From NCBI GenBank assembly GCA_963701965.1, contig OY969695.1, positions 2,432,001 through 2,496,000 of the forward strand: DNA of 64,000 nucleotides. The letters are read 5' to 3'. The stretch comes from an uncultured Gemmatimonadales bacterium. Its GTDB lineage: Bacteria > Gemmatimonadota > Gemmatimonadetes > Gemmatimonadales > Gemmatimonadaceae. The notes under the pieces are model-generated. The model was given only the letters and a program-made list of their open reading frames with translations, did no database searches and was not told the origin of the DNA. The translations under genes and the position numbers were made by a program. Positions 5,027-11,056 of this stretch are shown here, piece after piece (position 1 is the first letter of the stretch; each line of letters starts with the position of its first letter).

Positions 5027-6435
5027 CCGCGGGGCTCAAACGCACGATGAACATGCGCGACCTGGTGTTGTTCAACCTCGTCGCCGTCATCGGATTGCGT
5101 TGGCTGAACACGGCGGCCAAGTCCGGGCCCTCGTCCATCGTCCTCTGGCTGCTGGCGGCGGTGATGTTCTTCATCCCGCAGGGCCTTGCCGTCGGCGAGC
5201 TCTCGGCGCGCTACCCGAAAGAAGGCGGCATCTACTTCTGGACCCGCCGCCGGTTCGGCGAGGGGCACGGGTTCTTCTGCGGCTGGTGCTATTGGGTAGT
5301 GAACGTCCTCTACTACCCACAGCTCCTGCTCTCGGGCGCCGTCATCGTGCTGTTCGTGTTCGGCAAAGGCGACTCGGGACTCGCCGAGAGCTGGCCCTAC
5401 GTGCTGACCGCCTGCACGCTGATGCTGTGGTTTGCCGTGGCGCTCAACGTGGTGGGGCTGGGCACCGGGAAGTGGCTGCAAAACCTCGGCGGCATCGGGA
5501 CGTACGGGGCGGGCGTGATCGTGCTGCTCGTCGGCATCTATGCGATGTTCACCCATCCGAGCGCCAATCCGATCACGGCGCGCGCCCTCGTGCCCAATTT
5601 CGGCTCGTTCACCGAGGTGAATCTCTGGGCCACGATCGCGTTCGCGTTCGCCGGCCTCGAGCTCGCGGCGACCCTGGGCGACGAGATCCAGGACGCCGGG
5701 CACGCGTTGCCGCGCTCCACGTACATCTCGGCGCCCTTGATCGCGGGGATCTACGTCCTGGGCACGGTGTGCGTGTTGTGGCTCGTGCCCGTCGATTCCC
5801 TCAAGCTGACGTCGGGATTTCTGCAAGCGATCGAGATCGGCGCGCAGCGCCTGTGGTGGCTGGCGCCGCTGGCCGCCGCGGCGTACACCGTCGGCAACAT
5901 CGGGGGCGCCGGTGCCTGGCTCGCCGGGCCCGCGCGCGTGGCGTTCATGATCGGCCTCGACCGGTATCTCCCTCGGGCCTTCGGGCGCATCCATCCCCAA
6001 TGGGGCACGCCGTACGTCGCCATCATCGTGCAAGCGGCCATCGCCACGCTCGTGCTGCCGCTGGCAGCCATGAGTAACGGGGCGTCGGGACATGGCACGA
6101 CGGTCGAGCAGGTGTACCTCGACATTCTCGACGCACAGCTCCTCATCTACTTCGTCCCGTTCATCTATCTGTTCTGCTGTCTCTTGCTGGAGCGCGACAC
6201 CGATCGCGCCGGCATGGCGAAATCCGTGATCCCCGGCGGCACGTTCGGCCGCGTCCTCACCGCCACGTCGGGCCTCTTCGTCACTGTATTCGCCATGGTC
6301 GTCGCCGCGATCCCCCCGTCGGACCAGGACCCCTTACTCTTCGAGCTCAAGGTCGTCGGCGGGGCGATGGTGTTTTATCTCGTCGGATACGGCTTCTACT
6401 GGCACGGCGCCCGGACCCGGGTCCCATTATCATGA
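5023..6435 (+). CDS. APC family amino acid/polyamine permease
   Basis: About 12 hydrophobic segments, EGGIYFW, FAFAGLE, HPQWGTPY; ATGA overlaps on both sides. Confidence 0.88.
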   Translation: MTAGLKRTMNMRDLVLFNLVAVIGLRWLNTAAKSGPSSIVLWLLAAVMFFIPQGLAVGELSARYPKEGGIYFWTRRRFGEGHGFFCGWCYWVVNVLYYPQLLLSGAVIVLFVFGKGDSGLAESWPYVLTACTLMLWFAVALNVVGLGTGKWLQNLGGIGTYGAGVIVLLVGIYAMFTHPSANPITARALVPNFGSFTEVNLWATIAFAFAGLELAATLGDEIQDAGHALPRSTYISAPLIAGIYVLGTVCVLWLVPVDSLKLTSGFLQAIEIGAQRLWWLAPLAAAAYTVGNIGGAGAWLAGPARVAFMIGLDRYLPRAFGRIHPQWGTPYVAIIVQAAIATLVLPLAAMSNGASGHGTTVEQVYLDILDAQLLIYFVPFIYLFCCLLLERDTDRAGMAKSVIPGGTFGRVLTATSGLFVTVFAMVVAAIPPSDQDPLLFELKVVGGAMVFYLVGYGFYWHGARTRVPLS

Positions 6436-9011
6436 AACGCTGGTCGCTCCTGGCCCTCTGCCTCGCGGCACCGGTGAGCGCGCAGCGCGAGCCCGTGCTC
6501 GAGCAGATCGTGCTGCCGCACGCGTACTACTATCGCGAGATGTACCTCCCCCAGGTGACGAGCGGACCGAGCACGGTCACGTGGTCGCCCGATGGGCAGA
6601 GCGTGATCTACTCGATGCAGGGCTCGCTCTGGCGTCAGCGCCTGGGCACAACGGAAGCCGAGCAGCTGACGGCGGGTCCCGGGTACGACTTTCAGCCGGA
6701 CTGGTCGCCCGACGGCCGGTCGGTGGTCTACGTGTCCTATCGCGGCGACGCCGAGGAGCTGCGGTTGCTGGACCTGGCGAGCGGCGACGATCATCCGCTC
6801 ACGGTCAACGGCGCCGTCAACGTCGACCCGCGCTGGTCGCCCGACGGATCGCGCCTGGCGTTCGTGTCCACGGTCTATCAGGGCCGCTTTCACATCTACG
6901 TCGCGACCATCAAGACAGGACAGCTCGACGCCGTTCGCCGCGTCACCGAGGACCACGACAGTCATCTGCCGCGCTACTACTACTCGGTATTCGACCACTA
7001 CCTCTCACCGACGTGGTCGCCGGACGGCGCCGAGCTCCTGTTCGTCTCCAACCGCGGGCACGTGTGGGGCACGGGTGGTCTGTGGCGGGCGCCGGCCGAC
7101 AGCGGCCCGGCCGACCGCGCACGGCAGATCCCGGCGCAGCCGGGATCAGTCCAACCGACTTCGGATCTCGCGACGCGAAGCGTCGAGATCCGGAACGAAG
7201 AGACGGCCTGGAAGCCGCATCCCGACTGGTCGCGCGACGGGCATCGCGTAGTCTATAGCTCGTTCGCCGGCCGGCAGTGGAACCAGCTGTGGCTGACGAC
7301 GCCGAACGGCGACTTTCCCGTGCAGCTGACCTACGGCGACTTCGACGCCACGGTGCCCCGGTGGTCGCCGGACGGCGGCCGGATTGCGTTCATCGCCAAC
7401 GAGGGTGGCAACACATCGCTGCGCATCGTCGCCGTCCCGGGTGGTGCGGTCTCCATCGTCACGGCCAAGCAACGCCATTACAAGGGAGCGGTCGGCGTGC
7501 TCCGCGTCATGGTGCGCGATGCGACCGGCCATCCGATGCCTGGCCGCGTCTCGGTCTCGGGCCGTGGCGATCGCACCTACGCCCCGGACGACGCCTGGCG
7601 TTACGCCGACGACTCGTTCGACCGCAAAACGCGGCGCCTGGAGATCGGATACTTCCAGACCACCGGCGCGTCGGTGCTCACCGTTCCCGCCGAGAGCGTC
7701 ACCGTCGATGTGTCGCGCGGCCTCGAGTATCGTCCGGCGCATCGCCGCGTCGCCATCAAGCCCGGCGACACGACGACCGTGGTCGTGGGGCTCCCCCGTA
7801 TGGCCAACCTCCCGCCGGAGGGTTGGTACAGCGGCGACCTTCACGTGCACATGAACTACGGGGGCACGTATCGGAACACGACCGCGCATCTCGCCGAGCA
7901 GGCGCGCGCCGAGGACGTGCACGTCATCGAAGACTTGATCGTGAACAAGGAGGGGCGCATCCCCGACGTGGGGTCGTTCATTCCCGGCGGGCGCGCCGAT
8001 CCGGCGAGCGACGCCAACACGCTCATCGTCCACGGCCAGGAATTTCACACCAGCTACTGGGGCCACGCCGGCCTGTTGGGTCTTCGGTCGTCGCTGATCC
8101 TGCCCGGCTACGCCGCGTACGCGTCGACCCCGGTCGCGAGCCTCGTGCCCACCAACGCCGACGTCGCGGGCATGGCCCACGCCGACCGCGCGCTGCTTGG
8201 CTACGTGCACCCGTTCGACGTCTACCCCGATCCCGCGGATATGGGCACGGCGCTGACCGATGAGCTACCCGTCGATGTCGCTTTGGGCGCCGTAGACTAT
8301 ATGGAGATCGTCGGGTTCAGCGATCATTTGTCGACCGCCCGCGTATGGTATCAGCTGTTGAATTGCGGGTTTCGTCTCCCCGCGGGCGCGGGCACCGACG
8401 CGATGGCCAACTACGCGTCGCTCCGCGGGCCGGTCGGTCTCAACCGCGTCTTCGTCCACGCCGGCTCGGCTCTCTGGCACGGCGCCTGGCTCGACTCGCT
8501 CAAGGCCGGCCGCTCCTTCGCCACGAACGGCCCGCTCCTCACCCTCACGATCGACGGACACGCGATCGGCGATGAGATCAAGGTCGCCGGCCCGACGACG
8601 CTGCACATCCATGCGACGCTGGCATCGATCGTGAGCGTCGACCATTTCGAGCTCGTGGGCCCGAGCGGTGTCGTGGCCAGCGTGGCGCTGACGGGCGACC
8701 GCACGACGGCGACCGCGGACTGGACGGTGACCGACTCGACCAGCGCCTGGTATACGGTGCGCGCGTACGCCGATCACGCGGCCGATCCGGCGTATCCGAT
8801 CCTGGACACCTACCCGTTCGCGACGACGAGTCCCATCTACGTGACCGTCGCCAACCGGCCAATGCGCTCGCCGCGCGATGCCCAGTATTTCGCCGCCTGG
8901 ATCGCGCGGCTCGCGGCCGGCGCGCGGAACTACACCGGGTACAACACGCCTGCCGAGCGGGCGCATGTGCTGGCCCAACTCGACTCGGCCGCTGCCGTCT
9001 TTGGTCATTGA
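6432..9011 (+). CDS. Secreted TolB/PD40 beta-propeller + PHP-like (CehA/McbA-type) metallohydrolase
   Basis: Signal peptide, repeated WSPDG motifs, SGDLHVH, GQEFHT..GH, YVHP, GAGTD, SFATNGP. Confidence 0.8.
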   Translation: MKRWSLLALCLAAPVSAQREPVLEQIVLPHAYYYREMYLPQVTSGPSTVTWSPDGQSVIYSMQGSLWRQRLGTTEAEQLTAGPGYDFQPDWSPDGRSVVYVSYRGDAEELRLLDLASGDDHPLTVNGAVNVDPRWSPDGSRLAFVSTVYQGRFHIYVATIKTGQLDAVRRVTEDHDSHLPRYYYSVFDHYLSPTWSPDGAELLFVSNRGHVWGTGGLWRAPADSGPADRARQIPAQPGSVQPTSDLATRSVEIRNEETAWKPHPDWSRDGHRVVYSSFAGRQWNQLWLTTPNGDFPVQLTYGDFDATVPRWSPDGGRIAFIANEGGNTSLRIVAVPGGAVSIVTAKQRHYKGAVGVLRVMVRDATGHPMPGRVSVSGRGDRTYAPDDAWRYADDSFDRKTRRLEIGYFQTTGASVLTVPAESVTVDVSRGLEYRPAHRRVAIKPGDTTTVVVGLPRMANLPPEGWYSGDLHVHMNYGGTYRNTTAHLAEQARAEDVHVIEDLIVNKEGRIPDVGSFIPGGRADPASDANTLIVHGQEFHTSYWGHAGLLGLRSSLILPGYAAYASTPVASLVPTNADVAGMAHADRALLGYVHPFDVYPDPADMGTALTDELPVDVALGAVDYMEIVGFSDHLSTARVWYQLLNCGFRLPAGAGTDAMANYASLRGPVGLNRVFVHAGSALWHGAWLDSLKAGRSFATNGPLLTLTIDGHAIGDEIKVAGPTTLHIHATLASIVSVDHFELVGPSGVVASVALTGDRTTATADWTVTDSTSAWYTVRAYADHAADPAYPILDTYPFATTSPIYVTVANRPMRSPRDAQYFAAWIARLAAGARNYTGYNTPAERAHVLAQLDSAAAVFGH
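7126..7191 (+). repeat. Hairpin-linker-hairpin element, in-frame intragenic copy
   Basis: GATCCCGGC-GCA-GCCGGGATC, then AGTCCAACCGACT, then GGATCT(CG)CGACGC-GAA-GCGTCGAGATCC; 44/47 nt identical to the copies at 46528 and 46597. Confidence 0.9.
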
Positions 9012-9036
9012 TTTCGGTGTTTGTTCGGGTTATAAT
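9008..9036 (+). promoter_or_regulatory. Sigma70-type promoter for the sigma/S24 operon
   Basis: TTGATT (9008-13), 17 nt spacer, TATAAT (9031-36) in an AT-rich patch. Confidence 0.75.
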
Positions 9037-9093
9037 TCTCTCCCCCATCCGCCCCTGTCCGGGCGTGGTGTCATTTCAGAGAGGGAGAGCGAC

Positions 9094-9822
9094 GTGCGCG
9101 GCTGGCGGGAGGATGCGGTGCGGCCGCGGACGGAGCGAGTCGCCGAGAATGCGGCGGCGCTGGCGGATCGCGGGCTCATCGTCGCCATGCGATGCGGAGA
9201 TCGCGGGGCCTTAGCCGAGTTTTATCGCCGGTTTCGGCCGGTGCTCGTCGTGGCCGTTCGCCGGTTCACGTGGGGCGGGACGGATGATGCGCCGGGGGCA
9301 ATAGACGGCGAGGCAGTCGTGGAGGACGTGCTGACGGATGCGGCGATTCGGTTCGTCACGACGACGGCGGCGGTGCCCGGGTCGGTCGCCGGGTATCTCG
9401 TCCGGATGCTGCGCAATCGCGTGCTCAACGCCGTGCGGGCGCGCGATCGCGAGGCGCGCCGCGTCGACGAGGGCATGGGGCGTTCCGAGTACGCGGAGCG
9501 CACCAGTGCTGGTCCGGAGAGCGCGGATGCCGGGCTCATGCTGTCGTCATCGGCCGCGCCGGCCGTGGTGCGGCTGGCGGCGGCGCTCGACGCCGCGATG
9601 ACCGACGACGACCGGCTCGTCGCGACGTGGCTCGGGAACGGCGTCTCGCAGCTCGACATTGCCGAGTGGCTGGGCGTGAGCCACTCGGCGCTGTGCAAGC
9701 GGGTGAGCCGGTTGCGGGCGCGGCTGCGTCTGGTCGCCAATCGGCATTTGGCGGGCGCGAGCGCGGAGGACCGGCAGGTGTTGGACGCGGTATTGGGAGC
9801 GAGAGGAGGTGCGCATGAGTGA
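9094..9822 (+). CDS. ECF-type RNA polymerase sigma factor
   Basis: Region 2 (DRGLIVAMRCGDRGALAEFY..VEDV..GYLVRMLRNRVLN) and region 4 HTH (SQLDIAEWLGVSHSALCKRVSRLRARL); GTG follows a GAGGGAG RBS. Confidence 0.8.
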   Translation: MRGWREDAVRPRTERVAENAAALADRGLIVAMRCGDRGALAEFYRRFRPVLVVAVRRFTWGGTDDAPGAIDGEAVVEDVLTDAAIRFVTTTAAVPGSVAGYLVRMLRNRVLNAVRARDREARRVDEGMGRSEYAERTSAGPESADAGLMLSSSAAPAVVRLAAALDAAMTDDDRLVATWLGNGVSQLDIAEWLGVSHSALCKRVSRLRARLRLVANRHLAGASAEDRQVLDAVLGARGGAHE

Positions 9823-10546
9823 GCAAGGCGAGTTGTTTGATCCGTTAGCGCCGCCCAGCGCGGCGGCGCCGGGCGATGCGCTGCTCGCGCTCGTTGGTGA
9901 GGCATTGCCACCACCGCCCGACGAGCGGCCCTCGCGAGGCGAGCGCCGCTTTTGGGATTGGTACGCGCACCGAAGCCGCGGCCAACAGTCGCGAGAGGAC
10001 GCCCGAAACACCGAGTCCGGCGTGAGCGCCTTTGTCGAGCGCGTGTCCGCACGGCTCGCGTCGCTGGCCGCGCCACTGCGCCGGGTCGAGACCGCGGCGC
10101 TCCGCCATCCCGCCATCGTGGGAGGACCGGTGTCGAGTACACTCGCGCTCGCGCGCGCCGCCGGCGCGGCGCCGTTGGTCGAGGTCGGCGTCGCGGCCGG
10201 GAGTGGGCGCGAGATCTGGGATGAAGTGACGGACGCCTGGGTTCTGGTGCCGGAGGATCTGCCGTCCCACCGCTACGTGGCGATGCGGGTCACGGGCGAC
10301 AGCATGACACCGCTACTGCACTCCGACGATGTGGTGCTCATCGATCTTGACGATGGCGATACATCCGCGGGCGCGATCGTCGTCGCCCGCAACGCCGACG
10401 ACGGATACGTCGTGAAGCAGATCACCGCCAACGACGGTTTCGACATCGAGCTCGGTTCACTCAACCCCGATTACGCACCGTTGCACATCTCAGCAACGAG
10501 GAATCTAGTACTGGGTCGCGTCGTGCTCCGGTGGTGCGAGCACTGA
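9815..10546 (+). CDS. S24 (LexA/UmuD/CI-like) autopeptidase with a non-HTH N-terminal domain
   Basis: VAAG cleavage site, RVTGDSM Ser, VVKQ Lys, LGSLNPDY, VLGRV; AGGAGGT RBS; overlaps the sigma stop. Confidence 0.85.
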   Translation: MSEQGELFDPLAPPSAAAPGDALLALVGEALPPPPDERPSRGERRFWDWYAHRSRGQQSREDARNTESGVSAFVERVSARLASLAAPLRRVETAALRHPAIVGGPVSSTLALARAAGAAPLVEVGVAAGSGREIWDEVTDAWVLVPEDLPSHRYVAMRVTGDSMTPLLHSDDVVLIDLDDGDTSAGAIVVARNADDGYVVKQITANDGFDIELGSLNPDYAPLHISATRNLVLGRVVLRWCEH

Positions 10547-10642
10547 GCCTATCACGAATTCTGCACACTTTCGTCGTGCAAACCCTGACACCCCGAGCGG
10601 CATCTCATCGTACAGTTGTCAAGACCCCCACAGGGAGATGAG

Positions 10643-11056
10643 ATGCAGATGCGGTTTGCAAGCGGCGCCATGCTCAGGAGCGCGATGTTCAGGAGAGCCT
10701 TGCTCCCAGCGGCGCTGGTGGCATCGGTCGGATTCACCAATCGCGTACCGTCGACCGAGCCCGCCCCGATCGCGGGCCGGGTGATGGACCTGGTTGGCGA
10801 TGCGGTCCAGTTCGCGCACGTCCGGATCACCGATCAAATGACCGGCGCGGTCCTGACGACCCTCACATCATTGAACGGGAACTTCGTGATCGAGAATCTC
10901 TCCCGCGATCACCACTACAGCGTCGACGTCCGGTGTATCGGGTACGTGCCCCGCACGCTGACCGACGTGCAGCCCACCGCCGACGGCGCCGCGATCGCGG
11001 ACGTCATGATGGAACCGATCCCCCGGCGCGCAACGCCGCGTATCGCCAGTCTTTAG
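10643..11056 (+). CDS. Small secreted carboxypeptidase-regulatory-like domain protein
   Basis: Signal-like N-terminus; IAGRVMD..GDAVQFAHV..TSLNGNF..YSVDVRCIGY. Confidence 0.65.
   Translation: MQMRFASGAMLRSAMFRRALLPAALVASVGFTNRVPSTEPAPIAGRVMDLVGDAVQFAHVRITDQMTGAVLTTLTSLNGNFVIENLSRDHHYSVDVRCIGYVPRTLTDVQPTADGAAIADVMMEPIPRRATPRIASL

Follow-up and report, generated by a model that had tools for sequence, protein, structure and literature searches.

A conserved sigma-factor-like gene paired with a LexA-type autopeptidase gene in Gemmatimonadota: a candidate sigma/anti-sigma switch gated by DNA damage

The genome of an uncultured Gemmatimonadales bacterium (GCA_963701965.1), a single contig of 5.1 Mb (OY969695.1), carries two overlapping genes that encode a divergent protein resembling sigma factors of the extracytoplasmic function (ECF) group and an S24 autopeptidase of the LexA type devoid of a helix-turn-helix (HTH). 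Both lie in the 64,000-nucleotide stretch analyzed here, hereafter the window, which spans positions 2,432,001 to 2,496,000 of the contig and supplies the coordinates used below unless the contig is named. The pair is a real and conserved unit, and we consider it, with a probability of roughly 70%, to be a sigma/anti-sigma switch gated by DNA damage. A more detailed version, to which we would give slightly less than even odds, holds that the sigma factor belongs to a new sigma70-derived class reading a -23/-12 promoter, shorter by one helical turn than the ECF promoters described in the literature covered, and that it is caged by a LexA-type anti-sigma factor whose self-cleavage on RecA filaments exposes a ClpXP tag. 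The module would then act in Gemmatimonadota as a two-key SOS switch thrown late in the response, with secreted Rhs polymorphic toxins among its outputs in some lineages. Statements cited below by PMC or bioRxiv identifier reflect the parts of those sources that were covered.

The conserved sigma/S24 pair and its predicted complex

An earlier reading of the window made from the sequence only had described a two-gene unit with overlapping stop and start. Both genes are indeed on the forward strand and share 8 nt, many relatives have 4-nt ATGA overlaps instead, and this arrangement likely reflects translational coupling. Conservation of the pairing, proposed at the same time as a check, was examined and found. 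An S24 profile search of 401 sampled genomes of the phylum gave matches in 21, and a sigma gene lies directly upstream at 21 of these 21 loci. The sigma profile matched in 109 of 401 family genomes, a tally that takes in three unpublished genomes on which no other result rests. Out of 129 listed matches, 110 sigma loci were fetched, and the S24 gene comes next downstream in 94 of the 99 that have at least 500 bp of downstream flank. The relatives are mainly Gemmatimonadota (78 of the 80 loci from the species collection), and one is a Thermoleophilia bin.

The second protein is recognized by the Pfam family Peptidase_S24 (PF00717) over residues 121-237 (E 1.1e-17; 64.3 bits for a cut-off of 23.3). 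Its A128-G129 bond, S163 and K201 are found where the sequence-only reading had placed them, and the Ala-Gly, Ser and Lys are jointly intact in 123 of 124 diverse S24 homologs (clustered at 50-90% identity). The N-terminal domain of about 120 aa is also conserved, with W49 present in 118 of the 124. It had been described as lacking both an HTH and a transmembrane (TM) segment, and the discovery of an HTH there had been named beforehand as a finding that would count against the whole proposal. HTH families matched none of the 124 homologs (E<=0.01), the AlphaFold2 (AF2) model (mean per-residue confidence, pLDDT, 85.6) shows long helices at residues 19-29, 41-56 and 60-85 followed by a beta-beta-alpha arrangement, and there is no clear TM segment since the top 19-residue hydropathy is only 1.47. 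On these three grounds, an HTH or a TM segment in this domain was rejected.

The S24 protein does not fall readily into the known families of its kind. It scores 28.5 bits with the LexA model TIGR00498 (cut-off 110.95) and lacks the winged HTH that defines LexA; with the UmuD model NF007621 it scores 27.1 bits (cut-off 110), and it has neither the short arm nor the adjacent umuC gene expected of UmuD. That no umuC is adjacent had already been noted, and the two IMS/UmuC-family genes of the genome are located at 2.27 and 4.38 Mb, with the module at 2.44 Mb. The same genome encodes two ordinary HTH-bearing lexA genes. Fold searches made with the whole S24 model returned lists filled by matches to the S24 domain, such as Thermotoga LexA 3k2z (Z 14.0, root-mean-square deviation 2.6, 122 aligned residues). 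The N-terminal domain has no sequence match among Pfam anti-sigma families and no usable match in the Atlas, and the single S24 sequence has none among PDB sequences.

The first protein had been called an ECF sigma factor, a designation that stands in a weakened form. Its family profile aligns with the solved ECFs CnrH (E 1.5e-7) and SigH from sigma2 to sigma4, with the ECF arrangement of sigma2 and sigma4 without sigma3; its scores lie under the curated cut-offs, however, so that it is better described as divergent and ECF-like. The genome has 45 matches to Sigma70_r2, and the module sigma is not one of them.

A model of the sigma/S24 complex reached a score of 0.77, versus 0.02 for the best control. 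The score mark used is reached by 116 of 157 solved complexes and by 2 of 215 mismatched pairs, a calibration that applies roughly, since the alignments were self-supplied. The runs share at least 72% of contacts, with a partner pLDDT of at least 74. Only residues 21-84 of the S24 protein take part in the predicted interface, and they contact sigma residues 37-107, 148-215 and 233-238, which correspond to regions 2.1-2.3 and 4 plus the linker and C-terminal extension. Sigma2 regions 2.1/2.2 and sigma4 are the parts held by class I anti-sigma domains (PMC7406223), and in the predicted complex they are likewise touched by the N-terminal helices. The model supports the view that these helices bind the sigma factor as an anti-sigma factor would. 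Residues 112 and 202 of the sigma factor, its presumed DNA-reading residues, are not among the confident interface residues.

Alignment with Escherichia coli LexA places the pocket residues F111, L113 and V146 at V155, M157 and V190 of the S24 protein, positions that are hydrophobic in most homologs, and D150/D151 at D195/D196, which are acidic in 120 and 78 of the 124 homologs, respectively. In LexA, F111, L113, V146 and D150/D151 contact F203 of RecA (PMC9926225; bioRxiv 10.1101/2023.10.30.564768), and the host RecA retains the L2-loop Phe. Judging from this conservation, self-cleavage of the S24 protein is likely triggered by RecA bound to single-stranded DNA (ssDNA).

How cleavage would free the sigma factor is where the sequence-only reading, in which the N-terminal domain binds sigma and self-cleavage releases it, requires amendment. 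The first half agrees with the complex model, in which the N-terminal helices sit on sigma, but the scissile A128-G129 bond is 44 residues past the binding helices, so that the N-fragment would stay on the sigma factor. As the cut falls downstream of the whole sigma-binding segment, cleavage alone probably would not free sigma, and degradation of the N-fragment is likely needed. In 122 of the 124 homologs, the last residues of this fragment would be VAA, AAA or IAA. The fragments of E. coli LexA and RseA also end in VAA, and by analogy this end is likely a ClpXP tag; clpX is present in the genome. Autocleavage of LexA-like proteins exposes ClpXP degrons and their N-fragments are active until removed (PMC10584840, PMC7101444), and a sigma-bound RseA fragment is removed from RpoE by ClpXP (PMC8103513).

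A few loci of the family deserve mention in their own right. The module on the Thermoleophilia-labelled contig (locus L213) could result from transfer or from mis-binning, both being possible. Frame-split genes, either pseudogenes or assembly errors, affect sigma in L045 (G271) and S24 in L047 (G251) and L151 (G681). Two sigma paralogs devoid of both S24 gene and LexA-type box (L118 and L125; G581 and G488) directly precede a GspE-type secretion operon. Two other S24-less paralogs (L145 and L165; G487 and G098) keep the compact motif described below and are immediately followed by the small cargo gene, with an Rhs gene as well in G098.

The LexA-type box and the compact motif

The module is headed by a sigma70-type promoter (TTGATT, 17 nt, TATAAT), found once for 0.1 expected in shuffles, whose spacer holds the direct repeat TTCGG-N6-TTCGG. 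We infer that this repeat is a LexA box. A matrix built from the modules of other genomes ranks the one in the window first in this genome (29.1 bits), and 13 of the 16 exact matches to the repeat with spacer 6 in this genome are intergenic (other spacers: 2-8). By matrix or exact pattern, the box is also located upstream of lexA (two boxes), ruvB, recA, two repair-linked radical-SAM genes, a DnaE-type PHP gene, and the DUF763 and DUF5131 genes; some strong matches precede unrelated genes, and uvrA, ssb and recN of this genome have no box. A similar box, GTTC-N7-GTTC, is that of Acidobacteria and Alphaproteobacteria.

Among relatives, the box occurs at 18 of 19 module heads in a first set, the nineteenth showing a box that overlaps the called start, and at 87 of 102 module heads in a larger set. 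Across loci, box and S24 gene occur together in 77 cases, the S24 gene only in 9, neither in 5 and the box only in none; the five sigma loci without S24 are also without box. An operator common to lexA and recA that overlaps a promoter is what would be expected of a member of the SOS regulon, with LexA binding presumed. The module would lie under this putative LexA box and would not be independent of LexA, which refines the earlier reading. The two lexA genes are found at contig positions 864081 and 4877025. The first may control a different regulon, because tandem boxes are found upstream of the second only.

Closer to the sigma gene lies the two-part motif TGT[CA][AC]C-N5-[CG]G[TC]GTC[TA], likely a promoter read by the module sigma. 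At 10 bits or more, the motif occurs in 70 of 103 non-redundant upstream regions and in 25 of 85 regions after the S24 gene, with antisense counts of 2 and 1. Since the upstream set served to train the matrix, the independent count is that of the downstream regions; de novo motif search of the latter returned coding noise only, and it was a scan with the upstream matrix that revealed the motif there. Enrichment is confined to one spacer (70 of the 103 upstream regions; none of the other gaps between 0 and 20 exceeds 9). Half-sites are kept while spacer bases vary, and upstream and downstream copies are alike within a locus (12.95 of 15 positions versus 9.54 +/- 0.35 when shuffled, a value attained in 0 of 2000 shuffles over 22 loci, kin not being independent).

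All sigma columns were scanned for covariation with 12 motif positions in the 73 loci scoring at least 9, and the two top pairs involve one residue of each presumed DNA-reading region. Residue 202, in the recognition helix of sigma4.2, tracks base 4 of the motif in 73 of 73 loci (K, Q, R or H with C; V, L or I with A; z 8.9), and residue 112, in sigma2.4, tracks base 14 in 46 of 48 informative loci (N with T; D with C; z 7.0). In a tree built without the covarying columns, residue class, base and joint state each change 7 times. We take residues 202 and 112 to be equivalent to Ser172 and Asn84 of RpoE. These two residues of RpoE set -34 and -13/-12 specificity, and Arg171 was also tested (Todor et al., PMC7776599).

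When GTC is taken as -12 to -10, 90% of 77 sites have a purine at the expected +1. This places the left half of the motif at about -26 to -21, nearer by 10 bases than its counterpart in ECF41, whose promoter is TGTCACA-n16-CGTC (PMC3426412), and no conserved element is found at the usual -35 distance in these 77 sites. The 15-18 bp spacer of a bipartite ECF promoter is not found in the motif. A large regulon for the motif was sought and not found: counts were background-like in 21 genomes with the module and in 20 without a match. In four genomes of one genus (L034, L036, L037 and L039), the motif also stands in reverse orientation before a divergent degP/htrA-like gene.

Proposed mechanism, competing explanations and known systems

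In the favored reading, DNA damage would lift LexA off the sigma70 promoter and the sigma factor and S24 protein would be co-produced, as suggested by the box and the stop/start overlap. Helices 21-84 of the S24 protein are predicted to cover regions 2.1/2.2 and region 4 of sigma, thereby blocking core binding. Upon persistence of RecA filaments, S163 and K201 would cut A128-G129, a step suggested by the intact catalytic and RecA-pocket residues. The N-fragment would keep the binding domain, now end in VAA and, by analogy with LexA, IrvR and RseA, would be stripped away by ClpXP. The freed sigma factor would likely transcribe from its own compact promoter and so raise the output of the pair independently of LexA. 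In many relatives it would also drive the next genes, which mostly code for a small protein with what resembles a secretion signal, sometimes followed by an Rhs protein. The outcome would be a two-key, late SOS switch.

Several observations weigh against this reading. The sigma protein scores under the family cut-offs, with 18.2 bits for Sigma70_r2 (cut-off 24) and 35.3 bits for TIGR02937 (E 8e-9; cut-off 42.9), and the region 2.2 Gln of ECFs (Q in the aligned CnrH) is replaced by D, S, T, G, A or H at position 81; hence, core binding by this protein is not assured. The spacing of the motif does not fit the known geometry of the holoenzyme, this genome shows no genome-wide, spacer-specific excess of the motif, and the gene downstream of the pair in the window has no copy with the correct spacer, its best score being 8.6 with a spacer of another length. 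For the covariation, the well-supported branches of the tree supply just 2 independent pairs; both are concordant, but such a number cannot reach formal significance. Five of the 99 sigma loci have no S24 gene. Regarding the S24 protein, E152 and V153 of LexA are replaced by Gly and Tyr, so that the interface with RecA is not identical to that of LexA, and VAA before the scissile bond is common in LexA-like proteins and is by itself no proof of use as a degron. Finally, because the predicted grip resembles that of class I, the score of the complex may partly stem from likeness to solved sigma/anti-sigma pairs.

The lost region 2.2 Gln and half-sites about 10 bp too close for a holoenzyme (cf. 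ECF41, PMC3426412) are what would be expected if the sigma-like protein were a sigma-derived DNA-binding regulator that grips the motif without RNA polymerase, and if the S24 protein were its cleavable partner in regulation, so that the two would amount to a split LexA. Since residues 112 and 202 are outside the confident interface, such a complex could still bind DNA. We nevertheless deem this explanation unlikely: TANNNT occurs downstream of the motif in 0 of 77 sites, which leaves no housekeeping promoter there to control, a purine stands at the position that becomes +1 when GTC is read as the core from -12 to -10, and the S24-less paralogs L125, L145 and L165 keep the same spacing (scores 19.0, 16.5 and 13.9). 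A shade less probable is an S24 anti-sigma factor with a trigger other than RecA, cleaved constitutively or upon another signal, possibly a co-encoded protein with a putative Rad52 fold. This would liken it to IrvR, a RecA-independent S24 regulator (PMC7101444), and would suit both the two diverged RecA-contact positions and the putative Rad52/Sak-fold gene that precedes sigma in 75 of 104 loci, for which Foldseek ranks first a Sak annealase in complex with the Stl repressor (E 0.017). Nonetheless, the acidic patch and the hydrophobic pocket are largely retained, and in 29 of the 104 loci the module has no such third gene. The module of the window is one of these, and its genome has a shortened homolog at another place, with a separate box.

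Two further explanations appear very improbable. An HTH-less S24 protein is already known in UmuD, and two IMS-family genes are present in the genome, hence the idea that cleavage matures a positive partner of sigma or of a distant Y-family polymerase, with no inhibitor involved; yet no umuC-like gene adjoins the module in the 20 large loci inspected, the N-terminal region is long (about 120 aa) and conserved, and the predicted interface covers the core-binding face of sigma2. The two-part motif could also be a duplicated flank or a reused cassette around the gene pair instead of a promoter of the module sigma, considering that copies in direct orientation flank the pair in 22 loci and that kin share sequence. 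This is at odds with the conservation of half-sites next to variable spacer bases, with motif bases that covary with the very sigma positions from which reading of -35 and -10 would be expected, and with the oppositely oriented copy before the divergent degP-like gene in the four genomes mentioned above.

The damage-gated sigma/anti-sigma switch that we favor would combine features of several known systems. The S24 protein shares the Ser-Lys dyad, Ala-Gly site and fold of LexA and phage CI repressors, whose N-fragments need ClpX for removal (PMC10584840), but it lacks an HTH; its N-terminal domain is predicted to bind sigma, and cleavage would switch transcription on through the sigma factor rather than by leaving DNA. 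Like UmuD, it is an HTH-less S24 protein, under probable SOS control, that would act through a protein partner; unlike UmuD, it has a conserved helical N-terminal domain of about 120 aa, no adjacent umuC, a sigma factor as partner and a predicted inhibitory role. RpoE-RseA and other class I pairs also associate a co-transcribed sigma factor with an N-terminal helical inhibitor bound to sigma2 and sigma4, relieved by proteolysis and then ClpXP (PMC8103513, PMC7406223), whereas the S24 protein is predicted to be soluble, to carry a built-in protease in place of DegS/RseP and to respond to a cytoplasmic DNA-damage signal. RsgI and FecR are anti-sigma factors that cut themselves, as the S24 protein is predicted to do (PMC10328401, PMC12036975), but they are membrane proteins cut in a periplasmic domain, and the covered parts of these sources describe none as S24 or RecA-linked. 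The half-sites of ECF41 (TGTCACA, CGTC) resemble those of the module motif, with 17 bases between TGTCAC and the YGTC core versus 7 here (PMC3426412), and the spacers considered by Todor et al. were typically 15-18 in the search and 16-18 in the scoring (PMC7776599). As modelled, the pair falls outside LexA (no HTH), UmuD (no umuC, long N-terminal domain) and canonical ECFs (cut-offs, spacer), and would work like RseA with built-in LexA chemistry.

Positive or cascaded control by DNA damage is also a feature of DriD, which in the covered part of its source has no sigma/anti-sigma pair. PafBC, PrtR/PrtN and colicin-type SOS outputs similarly provide positive or cascaded DNA-damage control or an SOS-linked antibacterial output, and to our knowledge none of them uses a sigma/anti-sigma pair. 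The statement of the sequence-only reading that no system of this form has been characterized agrees with a full-text literature search, mostly outside subscription journals, which found no sigma/S24 system. Neither LexA nor S24 is mentioned in the main text of the ECF re-classification (PMC7826278), and the covered part of the supplement mentions S24 only as a signal peptidase near ECF02; the remainder of that supplement may bear on novelty.

If the favored reading is true, the pair would represent a new mode of sigma control, in which the RecA-ssDNA signal is wired directly to a sigma factor by an anti-sigma factor that carries its own protease, and in which the chemistry of an SOS repressor is turned into that of an activator. 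The compact promoter would call into question the assumption that holoenzymes of the sigma70 family have a fixed geometry, and surveys made with 15-18 bp spacers would have missed it. The residue-base code makes promoter reading directly testable, and the sigma factor, anti-sigma factor and promoter could serve as an orthogonal DNA-damage switch. The analysis also provides a candidate LexA box and SOS regulon for Gemmatimonadota.

Coordinates, neighboring genes and candidate targets

The features of the module are listed in Table 1.

Table 1. Features of the sigma/S24 module, in window coordinates
Feature	Position	Strand	Remarks
Sigma70-type promoter heading the module	9008-9036	+	Predicted
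Putative LexA (SOS) box	9013-9028	+	Direct repeat in promoter spacer; top match in genome
Two-part motif	9056-9073	+	Likely autoregulatory promoter of sigma; about 10 bp less between halves than in ECF promoters
Sigma gene (ORF1)	9094-9822	+	242 aa, GTG start; divergent ECF-like sigma factor
Sigma protein domains	within 9094-9822	+	sigma2 at about residues 39-120, sigma4 HTH at about 166-212, C-terminal helical extension
Sigma2.4 residue N112	9427-9429	+	Tracks motif base 14
Sigma4.2 recognition-helix residue K202	9697-9699	+	Tracks motif base 4
Stop/start overlap	9815-9822	+	ATG at 9815, TGA at 9820-9822
S24 gene (ORF2)	9815-10546	+	243 aa; HTH-less S24 autopeptidase, predicted soluble anti-sigma factor
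Candidate anti-sigma domain, S24 residues 21-84	9875-10066	+	Three helices, the entire predicted sigma interface
Predicted self-cleavage site V126-A127-A128 / G129	10190-10201	+	VAAG in 94, AAAG in 16 and IAAG in 12 of 124 homologs
Catalytic Ser163	10301-10303	+	Kept in 123/124 homologs
Catalytic Lys201	10415-10417	+	Kept in 123/124 homologs
Gene after S24	10643-11056		Carboxypeptidase-regulatory-like

Directly upstream of the module, at 6432-9011, lies a gene for a TolB-like beta-propeller protein with a long C-terminal region, in synteny with the pair in the close lineage only. The third gene found in other loci is named PF27148 Slr1353_N in the Atlas and has no match among PDB sequences. 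Its best fold matches are Mgm101 (Z 7.5, root-mean-square deviation 3.3, 94 aligned residues) and RAD52 (Z 7.4, 3.3, 97 aligned residues), both below the caution level of Z 8. The shortened homolog of this gene, restricted to the N-terminal Rad52-like part, is located far from the module at 3804226-3804623 of the contig.

The commonest family just after S24 is a small protein without Pfam family (27 of 122 non-redundant loci, 15 with the motif), whose N-terminus resembles a secretion signal when judged by eye. Rhs-type genes were found downstream in 3 of 20 unselected large loci, where two were recognized by Pfam and the third by clustering. Among 20 loci picked partly for Rhs cargo, 11 have such genes, and one of the genes ends in an HNH domain. 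Unrelated genes adjoin the module in other lineages. In the window, GCAAAC-N16-GCATCT at 10578-10605, kept in loci of the same lineage upstream of the carboxypeptidase-regulatory-like gene, looks like a promoter with the canonical spacing of another ECF.

The type II secretion operon beside the Rhs genes of this genome was considered as a target and is not supported, with two weak upstream matches (12.0 and 12.1). In genomes that have the sigma family, 4 of 15 such loci show motif matches, versus 3 of 13 where the family is lacking, a comparison that left out 2 of 30 loci (one unpublished, one without flank). The operon, complete and accompanied by a sigma54-type activator, is flanked by two Rhs genes in an island at 2923283-2944649 of the contig, the Rhs parts of which are low in GC. 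This island adjoins a conjugation-like gene cluster and an ECF/anti-sigma pair.

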